Shown here one piece after another: positions 34,675 to 35,634 of a stretch of DNA of 64,000 nucleotides. The notes below the pieces were generated by a model. The model was given only the letters and a program-made list of their open reading frames with translations. It ran no database searches and was not told the DNA's origin. Source of the DNA: Escherichia coli (GTDB taxonomy: Bacteria > Pseudomonadota > Gammaproteobacteria > Enterobacterales > Enterobacteriaceae); assembly GCF_029227855.1 (NCBI RefSeq), contig NZ_CP074356.1, one strand, 5' to 3'. Made by a program: the position numbers and the translations under genes. How positions within the stretch are numbered: the stretch's first letter is position 1; every line of letters starts with the position of its first letter.

Positions 34675-35634
34675 TTGGCGCGGGTTGTTTTTCGTGACGC
34701 ACGAATTTATCTCATTCAATGGCTGACAAAAATTCGTCACACTCTTAACCAGAGACAATCTCTTAATACAGACAAAGAGCATCTGCGAAAAATTGTACGC
34801 GCGATGTTCTGGCTGATGCTGCTTATTATTTCTGCAAAAGTGGCGCATTCACTCTGGCGCTATTTCTCCTTTTCTGCGGAATATACGGCGGTTTCCCCAT
34901 CGGCGAATAAACCGCCCCGTGCAGATGCAAAAACGTTCAATAAAAATGACGTGCAATTAATCAGCCAGCAAAACTGGTTTGGCAAATATCAGCCTGTCGC
35001 CGTGCCGGTAAAACAACCTGAACCTGCGCCTGTGGCAGAAACACGTCTTAATGTGGTGCTGCGCGGGATCGCCTTTGGTGCCAGACCTGGCGCGGTTATT
35101 GAAGAAGGCGGCAAACAGCAGGTCTATTTGCAGGGGGAACGGCTTGGTTCTCACAACGCGGTGATTGAGGAAATCAATCGCGACCATGTGATGCTGCGCT
35201 ATCAGGGAAAAATAGAGCGCCTGAGCCTGGCTGAAGAGGAGCGTCCCACCGTTGCCGTGACCAACAAAAAAGCTGTCAGTGACGAAGCAAAGCAAGCCGT
35301 TGCTGAACCTGCTGTCAGTGCGCCAGTTGAGATCCCGACTGCCGTGCGTCAGGCACTGGCGAAAGATCCGCAGAAAATTTTTAACTATATCCAGCTTACG
35401 CCTGTGCGTAAGGAGGGGATTGTCGGTTATGCAGTGAAGCCGGGGGCAGATCGTTCTCTGTTCGATGTCAGCGGTTTCAGGGAAGGCGATATCGCCATTG
35501 CGCTAAATCAGCAGGATTTCACTGATCCACGAGCAATGATTGCTCTGATGCGGCAGTTACCTTCAATGGATTCCATTCAACTTACGGTTTTACGCAAGGG
35601 TGCGCGCCACGACATTTCCATCGCGCTGCGCTAA
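34675..35634 (+). CDS. gspC: T2SS-beta protein GspC (start uncertain: TTG 34675 or first ATG 34804)
   Basis: Single N-terminal TM (MFWLMLLIISAKVAHSLW), Pro-rich linker, C-terminal PDZ-like domain; precedes secretin. Confidence 0.8.
   Translation: MARVVFRDARIYLIQWLTKIRHTLNQRQSLNTDKEHLRKIVRAMFWLMLLIISAKVAHSLWRYFSFSAEYTAVSPSANKPPRADAKTFNKNDVQLISQQNWFGKYQPVAVPVKQPEPAPVAETRLNVVLRGIAFGARPGAVIEEGGKQQVYLQGERLGSHNAVIEEINRDHVMLRYQGKIERLSLAEEERPTVAVTNKKAVSDEAKQAVAEPAVSAPVEIPTAVRQALAKDPQKIFNYIQLTPVRKEGIVGYAVKPGADRSLFDVSGFREGDIAIALNQQDFTDPRAMIALMRQLPSMDSIQLTVLRKGARHDISIALR

Follow-up and report, generated by a model that had tools for sequence, protein, structure and literature searches.

The gspC gene considered here belongs to the cluster for type II secretion system β (T2SS-β) of Escherichia coli, in a 64,000-nt stretch of contig NZ_CP074356.1 (the window, to whose positions all coordinates refer unless stated otherwise), and is very probably translated from the TTG codon at 34675, which a 17-nt gap separates from the stop of the pilotin gene gspS2 upstream, to give a protein of 319 aa. 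The first ATG of the frame, at 34804, is simply internal, encoding Met44, and is implausible as a start codon. The TTG start is the ordinary explanation and is already known, standing as it does in the current reference annotation. The reading is built on codon content, conservation, the architecture of homologues and annotation practice, from which initiation by ribosomes at the TTG itself is deduced on the strength of sequence.

Candidate start codons and the initiation region

The gspC frame is open from 34606, behind an in-frame TAA at 34603, and the TTG at 34675 is the first canonical start codon within it. A listing of every codon in 34678-34803 found no in-frame GTG, TTG or ATG, there is likewise no other canonical start in 34606-34803, and the only near-cognate codons in 34678-34803 are ATT (34705, 34714, 34732 and 34792) and CTG (34723 and 34783). 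The realistic choice is therefore between TTG 34675 and ATG 34804. An extension of gspC upstream into gspS2 was also considered and rejected, since from the stop at 34603 up to the TTG the frame offers only CTG 34636 and ATA 34654. One and three stops interrupt the other two frames of 34678-34803, and the chance of finding 43 open codons upstream of an ATG is estimated at about (61/64)^43 = 0.13, which is only mildly unlikely, so the open frame alone decides nothing.

A Shine-Dalgarno (SD)-like GGGU lies 9 nt upstream of TTG 34675, and its duplex with the anti-SD sequence (-3.8 kcal/mol) is the best among the candidate starts. Neither ATG has an SD sequence (+0.1 kcal/mol for 34804 and -1.5 kcal/mol for 34816), and the ATT and CTG codons of 34678-34803 range from +0.6 to -2.1 kcal/mol, with no usable SD. 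The motif GGTA...ATAA(A)TTGG, which takes in the start codon, is kept in seven lineages, down to 38% protein identity. No sigma-70-like promoter was found on the + strand in 33200-35800, which leaves no indication that the ATG is preceded by a leader of its own.

RNA structure around the gspC start showed neither excess stability (z=-0.13) nor covariation. The sequence AUAAAUU (34670-34676), which overlaps the TTG, is complementary to AAUUUAU (34703-34709), and both A/U arms are kept in the seven lineages, again with no covariation. Between the arms lies a 6-bp hairpin, TTCGTG-ACG-CACGAA (34691-34705), and, after it, a run rich in T; the count of such terminator-like arrangements is at chance level.

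A first-pass annotation of the same DNA had drawn the longest gspC frame from TTG 34675 and placed the first ATG at 34804, which the open reading frame (ORF) prediction and the codon listing bear out. Its further proposal, that translation begins at a non-ATG codon between these two positions, survives in part: a non-ATG start is supported, but not one in between, since the interval holds no GTG, TTG or ATG and the favoured TTG forms its left edge. Ribosome-binding-site scoring, which it named as a check, does rank the TTG first, but a score of this size is common at arbitrary positions and does not discriminate.

Conservation of the start and of the N-terminal tail

The region was aligned across 12 other Escherichia loci, representing E. 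coli phylogroups, E. albertii, E. marmotae, Escherichia sp. E1V33 and one metagenomic lineage. The TTG is unchanged in all 12, and the codon for Met44 is ATA (Ile) in E. marmotae (locus L007) and that for Met48 is ATT (Ile) in locus L008. Codons 2-43 are open and free of indels in all Escherichia lineages examined, and nothing in the protein sequence of codons 2-13 varies except for L13F and I14N, with nucleotide differences that include the synonymous pairs GAC/GAT, CGA/AGA and CTC/CTG. Of 3654 E. coli records, 3371 (92%) show no difference in the 60 nt centred on the TTG, compared with 321 of 2964 (11%) for the 60 nt centred on ATG 34804, the latter count leaving aside ~690 further genomes that were too diverged for detection by megablast.

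Beyond Escherichia, an exhaustive HMMER search retrieved three relatives with equally long N-termini: P0121 (318 aa, 50% identity; locus L009), P0124 (313 aa, 38-39%; locus L010) and P0126 (321 aa, 38-42%). A scan of genome contigs yielded four loci only, and is not a broad sampling of named species. The P0121 and P0124 contigs have the same pppA-gspS2-gspC-gspD order, and the short P0126 contig carries gspS2-gspC only. The gspC start codon is GTG in L009 and TTG in L010; in both it follows the gspS2 stop by 21 nt and stands behind the motif known from E. coli, TAA-N-(G/A)GGTA-N-A-N-ATAA-TTGG. Direct reading of the sequences places the first in-frame ATG of L009 in the middle of the helix and finds none in L010; with no ATG before or at the helix, the gspC start of both must be non-ATG and upstream. 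The residue at the Met44 position is Leu or Ile in P0121 and P0124, and their N-terminal sequences are collinear with residues 4-42 of the E. coli protein, with local alignment scores of z=3.1 (reached by 23 of 2000 shuffles) and z=2.6 (50 of 2000). Residues N31, K34 and K39 are invariant in a seven-sequence alignment of the family (A3).

It is extremely improbable that translation starts at one of the ATT or CTG codons listed above, as a start inside the interval would require. Such a start would suit the typical GspC cytoplasmic tail of ~20-25 residues, which is shorter than 43, and P0126 begins with an ATG whose place in the alignment is near residue 11, that is, at ATT 34705. Furthermore, PGAP, the NCBI annotation pipeline, falls back on this same ATT in one genome, E. 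coli 2018-05-5CC (L019), where a natural nonsense mutation (CGA to TGA) at gspC codon 10 is followed by an unusual call of a 309-aa gspC from the next codon, ATT (equivalent to 34705), the two codons together being equivalent to window 34702-34707. Initiation at ATT or CTG is very rare in E. coli, infC and pcnB being the classic cases. The interval offers no GTG or TTG and no SD (the best value being -2.1 kcal/mol), and the invariance of codons 2-13 in the face of synonymous change also counts against a start further downstream than the TTG.

Membrane topology and domain architecture

The Kyte-Doolittle maximum of the 319-aa product falls at residues 40-58 (IVRAMFWLMLLIISAKVAH), in the sole hydrophobic segment of GspC, and residues 1-43 ahead of it carry 10 K/R. 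Because Met44 stands at the N-terminal edge of the helix, a start at ATG 34804 leaves no cytoplasmic residues and zero positive charge N-terminal to the helix, K55 and R62 being on the C side, and a start at Met48 leaves a hydrophobic segment of only 14 residues. Positive charges orient a membrane helix according to the positive-inside rule, by which the N-in orientation, the one that puts HR and PDZ into the periplasm, is not favoured for a protein begun at the ATG; the basic tail of the longer protein would fix the N-in orientation by the same rule. The family topology of a short cytoplasmic N-terminus and a single N-in helix is accordingly found with the TTG start and not with ATG 34804. 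The first-pass annotation had remarked that this ATG falls at the start of the helix with the cytoplasmic part nearly absent, and hydropathy agrees. It had also held that homologues consistently starting at the ATG would undo an upstream start; no such consistency was found, given the ATA codon of E. marmotae and the absence of the ATG from the relatives at 50% and 38% identity.

The remainder of the protein is that of a GspC. Residues 121-186 align to chain C of PDB 3OSS with E=2.8e-35 and one substitution, identifying the HR domain, and residues 222-316 align to the PDZ structure of Vibrio cholerae EpsC (2I4S) with E=8.7e-22, although Pfam PDZ_2 stays below threshold on the product (18.7 bits against 27). 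TIGR01713 matches residues 43-317 (143.4 bits; cutoff 101.6) and Pfam PF11356 (T2SSC) residues 46-185 (112.4 bits; cutoff 27). With a cytoplasmic tail, one transmembrane helix, a linker rich in Pro, HR and PDZ, the protein shares the architecture of the GspC/EpsC/PulC/OutC family (TIGR01713, PF11356; PDB 6HCG, 2I4S; PMC3169554), and binding of HR to the N0 domain of the secretin GspD has been shown for GspC of enterotoxigenic E. coli (ETEC) (PMC3169554). It differs from most GspC proteins in its tail of ~43 residues, roughly 20 longer, such that its residue 39 is matched to residue 17 in the 6HCG chain, and conservation of the additional stretch is confined to the narrow GspC-β family. Within that family, the gene is the same gene as that for E. 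coli T2SS-β GspC (YghF; ETEC H10407 GspC, PDB 3OSS; NF007242/PRK09681) and has the same gene order, the only difference being the start coordinate deposited by successive generations of annotation.

Annotation record, locus and expression of gspC

Three versions of gspC have been deposited: 319 aa from the TTG (RefSeq/PGAP), 276 aa from ATG 34804 (288 aa in K-12, as 'ORF_f288') and 272 aa from ATG 34816. RefSeq/PGAP places the start at the TTG in every inspected genome with an intact locus, and residues 1-319 match the 319 positions of the NCBIfam equivalog NF007242 end to end (732 bits; cutoff 561), a full coverage that is reached only with the TTG start. The crystal construct of the ETEC GspC HR domain was described as 'residues 122-186' (PMC3169554), and this fragment (PDB 3OSS) aligns to residues 122-186 when numbering begins at the TTG, which shows usage in the field and is not an experimental N-terminus.

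Several observations weigh against the TTG start. The SD is weak, -3.8 kcal/mol being attained by roughly 20-37% of arbitrary window positions, compared with -7.4 kcal/mol for both gspD and gspE. Between Escherichia lineages, the ratio of nonsynonymous to synonymous substitution rates (dN/dS) is 0.3-1.1 for codons 2-43, compared with 0.17-0.28 over the remaining codons, but each pair offers just 2-6 synonymous changes, too few to speak for or against coding. The generic GspC models TIGR01713 and Pfam T2SSC begin at the helix, and part of the agreement among annotations is circular, PGAP being guided by a family model of its own. No record of N-terminal proteomics or of initiation profiling for yghF/gspC was found in a literature search that did not extend to the supplements of the Ribo-RET preprint (10.1101/520783) or to two primary operon papers, and the supplements of PMC13245402 (TRAINSPOTTER) hold no yghF/gspC entry. 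Finally, the divergent E. coli strain E69 (CP089930.1; L016) encodes a GspC of 290 aa whose ATG lies only 12 residues before the helix, so a long tail is not universally required in the family. E69 carries a divergent T2SS-β-like cluster in which gspC again lies between gspS2 and gspD, and beyond residue 39 its product is 52% identical to the GspC studied here, but it differs in its ATG start, its 12-residue tail and its 117-nt gspS2-gspC spacer (1360-1476 of that locus), which is without the conserved TTG initiation motif; its GspC still has a basic membrane-proximal stretch.

Some of these observations would favour a start at ATG 34804 (276 aa) or ATG 34816 (272 aa), in which case 34658-34803 would be an untranslated 146-nt spacer left open by chance, a reading that is nevertheless highly unlikely. 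No start codon is commoner than ATG, these two ATGs serve as the start in the original K-12 annotation ('ORF_f288') and in many automatic calls, dN/dS is relaxed upstream of the ATG, and E69 provides a relative with a short tail. PGAP, moreover, accepts ATG 34804 in E. coli PSS-12 (L020), where an IS1B insertion just upstream of the equivalent of 34798 severs the first ~41 gspC codons and the remainder is annotated from the ATG as a 276-aa GspC. Neither ATG, however, has an SD, each is replaced by an Ile codon in an Escherichia locus, and the nearest relatives outside Escherichia have no ATG there. A protein begun at Met44 would lose the invariant N31, K34 and K39 together with all N-side positive charge, favouring the wrong topology, and one begun at Met48 would keep only 14 residues of hydrophobic sequence; furthermore, the upstream frame is open and indel-free in every lineage and the TTG region is far more conserved than that of the ATG.

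Use of both the TTG and an internal ATG, producing long and short GspC isoforms, is very improbable. A weak upstream TTG/SD followed by in-frame ATGs is an arrangement with reported internal initiation, which the Ribo-RET preprint (10.1101/520783) describes for other E. coli genes, but the internal ATGs of gspC are not conserved and lack an SD, and the short form would have no topogenic charges.

The surrounding window is the E. coli T2SS-β cluster, in which ORFs and RefSeq features give the order sslE-pppA-gspS2-gspC-gspD-gspE expected of that operon (Table 1). Over the 1.5 kb around the gspC start, identity is 100% with E. coli MLI106K1 and 95-99% with ~3,700 records of complete E. coli genomes. 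Strains that express the operon include BL21(DE3), in which this happens during exponential phase (PMC5435950), as well as E. coli W and, at 37 °C, ETEC H10407. The gspD start at 35664 is likewise non-ATG (GTG), yet has a strong SD (AGGAG, -7.4 kcal/mol), in contrast to the weak SD of gspC. An antisense ORF of 78 aa (34612-34848, - strand) spans the entire disputed interval; it is unsupported and presumably mechanical. Elsewhere in the window, matches at the Rfam gathering level are the C0719 small RNA (297 bits; 26206-26427, - strand) and one tRNA (63387-63459, - strand). In K-12 MG1655 (L002, 1974-2969), RefSeq gspC (yghF) runs to 331 aa, past the normal stop position and over the gspD-K deletion junction, and overlaps an N-terminally truncated gspL pseudogene.

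Table 1. Positions of the gspC start region, the domains of its product and the neighbouring genes in the window
Feature	Position	Strand	Details
gspC(β), whole gene	34675-35634	+	319 aa plus stop
TTG	34675-34677	+	first canonical start in the gspC frame; best-supported initiation codon
First ATG	34804-34806	+	codon 44 (Met44), N-terminal edge of membrane helix; rival start in older annotations
Second ATG	34816-34818	+	codon 48 (Met48); start of 272-aa calls
gspS2-gspC spacer	34658-34674	+	17 nt; SD-like GGGT (34662-34665) and A/T-rich stretch before the start codon
Cytoplasmic N-terminal tail	34678-34803	+	codons 2-43, ARVVFRDARIYLIQWLTKIRHTLNQRQSLNTDKEHLRKIVRA; 10 K/R, 3 D/E
Single transmembrane segment	34792-34857	+	about residues 40-61; hydropathy; first matched residue is 46 for Pfam T2SSC and 43 for TIGR01713
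HR domain	35038-35232		residues 122-186
PDZ-like C-terminal domain	35338-35622		about residues 222-316
sslE	28656-33224
pppA	33372-34181
gspS2 (yghG/AspS)	34247-34657	+	pilotin lipoprotein gene directly 5' of gspC; stop TAA 34655-34657; ORF and RefSeq annotation
gspD	35664-37724
gspE	37724-39217

Ribosomes would most likely begin at TTG 34675, whether directly on the weak SD-like GGGU or through a putative re-initiation after termination of gspS2 translation 17 nt upstream. The product would be a 319-aa bitopic inner-membrane GspC whose 43-residue basic tail stays in the cytoplasm, whose helix spans the inner membrane and whose periplasmic HR domain contacts the N0 domain of the GspD secretin, with the PDZ domain at its end. 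The weak TTG/SD pair close behind gspS2 would imply low-level or coupled translation, a suggestion that comes from the conservation of the non-ATG codon and the weak SD across the family, even at 38% protein identity. It is conceivable, although on balance unlikely, that the non-ATG start, a weak SD-like sequence (GGGUA) and the constant spacing of 17-21 nt behind the pilotin gene form a selected low-efficiency or translationally coupled module tying GspC output to GspS2 translation, and that the extra ~20 residues of the tail have a partner of their own, for example the GspL/GspE cytoplasmic assembly. Pairing of AUAAAUU with AAUUUAU, which would mask the start codon, could be part of such a coupled initiation module.

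The TTG start decides which of the three deposited gspC coordinates to trust, which is of small practical value, and it explains the residue numbering of ETEC GspC in the structural literature. Constructs and knock-outs based on the old ATG annotation omit or leave 43 codons, as with the K-12 'ORF_f288' and the gspC-M deletion in E. coli W, for which the primer gspKO-up (PMC3707838) matches 34754-34803 and ends exactly before ATG 34804, indicating that it was designed on the ATG annotation and that the deletion leaves gspC codons 1-43 in place. New biology would follow only if the conserved, weak initiation region turned out to have a regulatory role.
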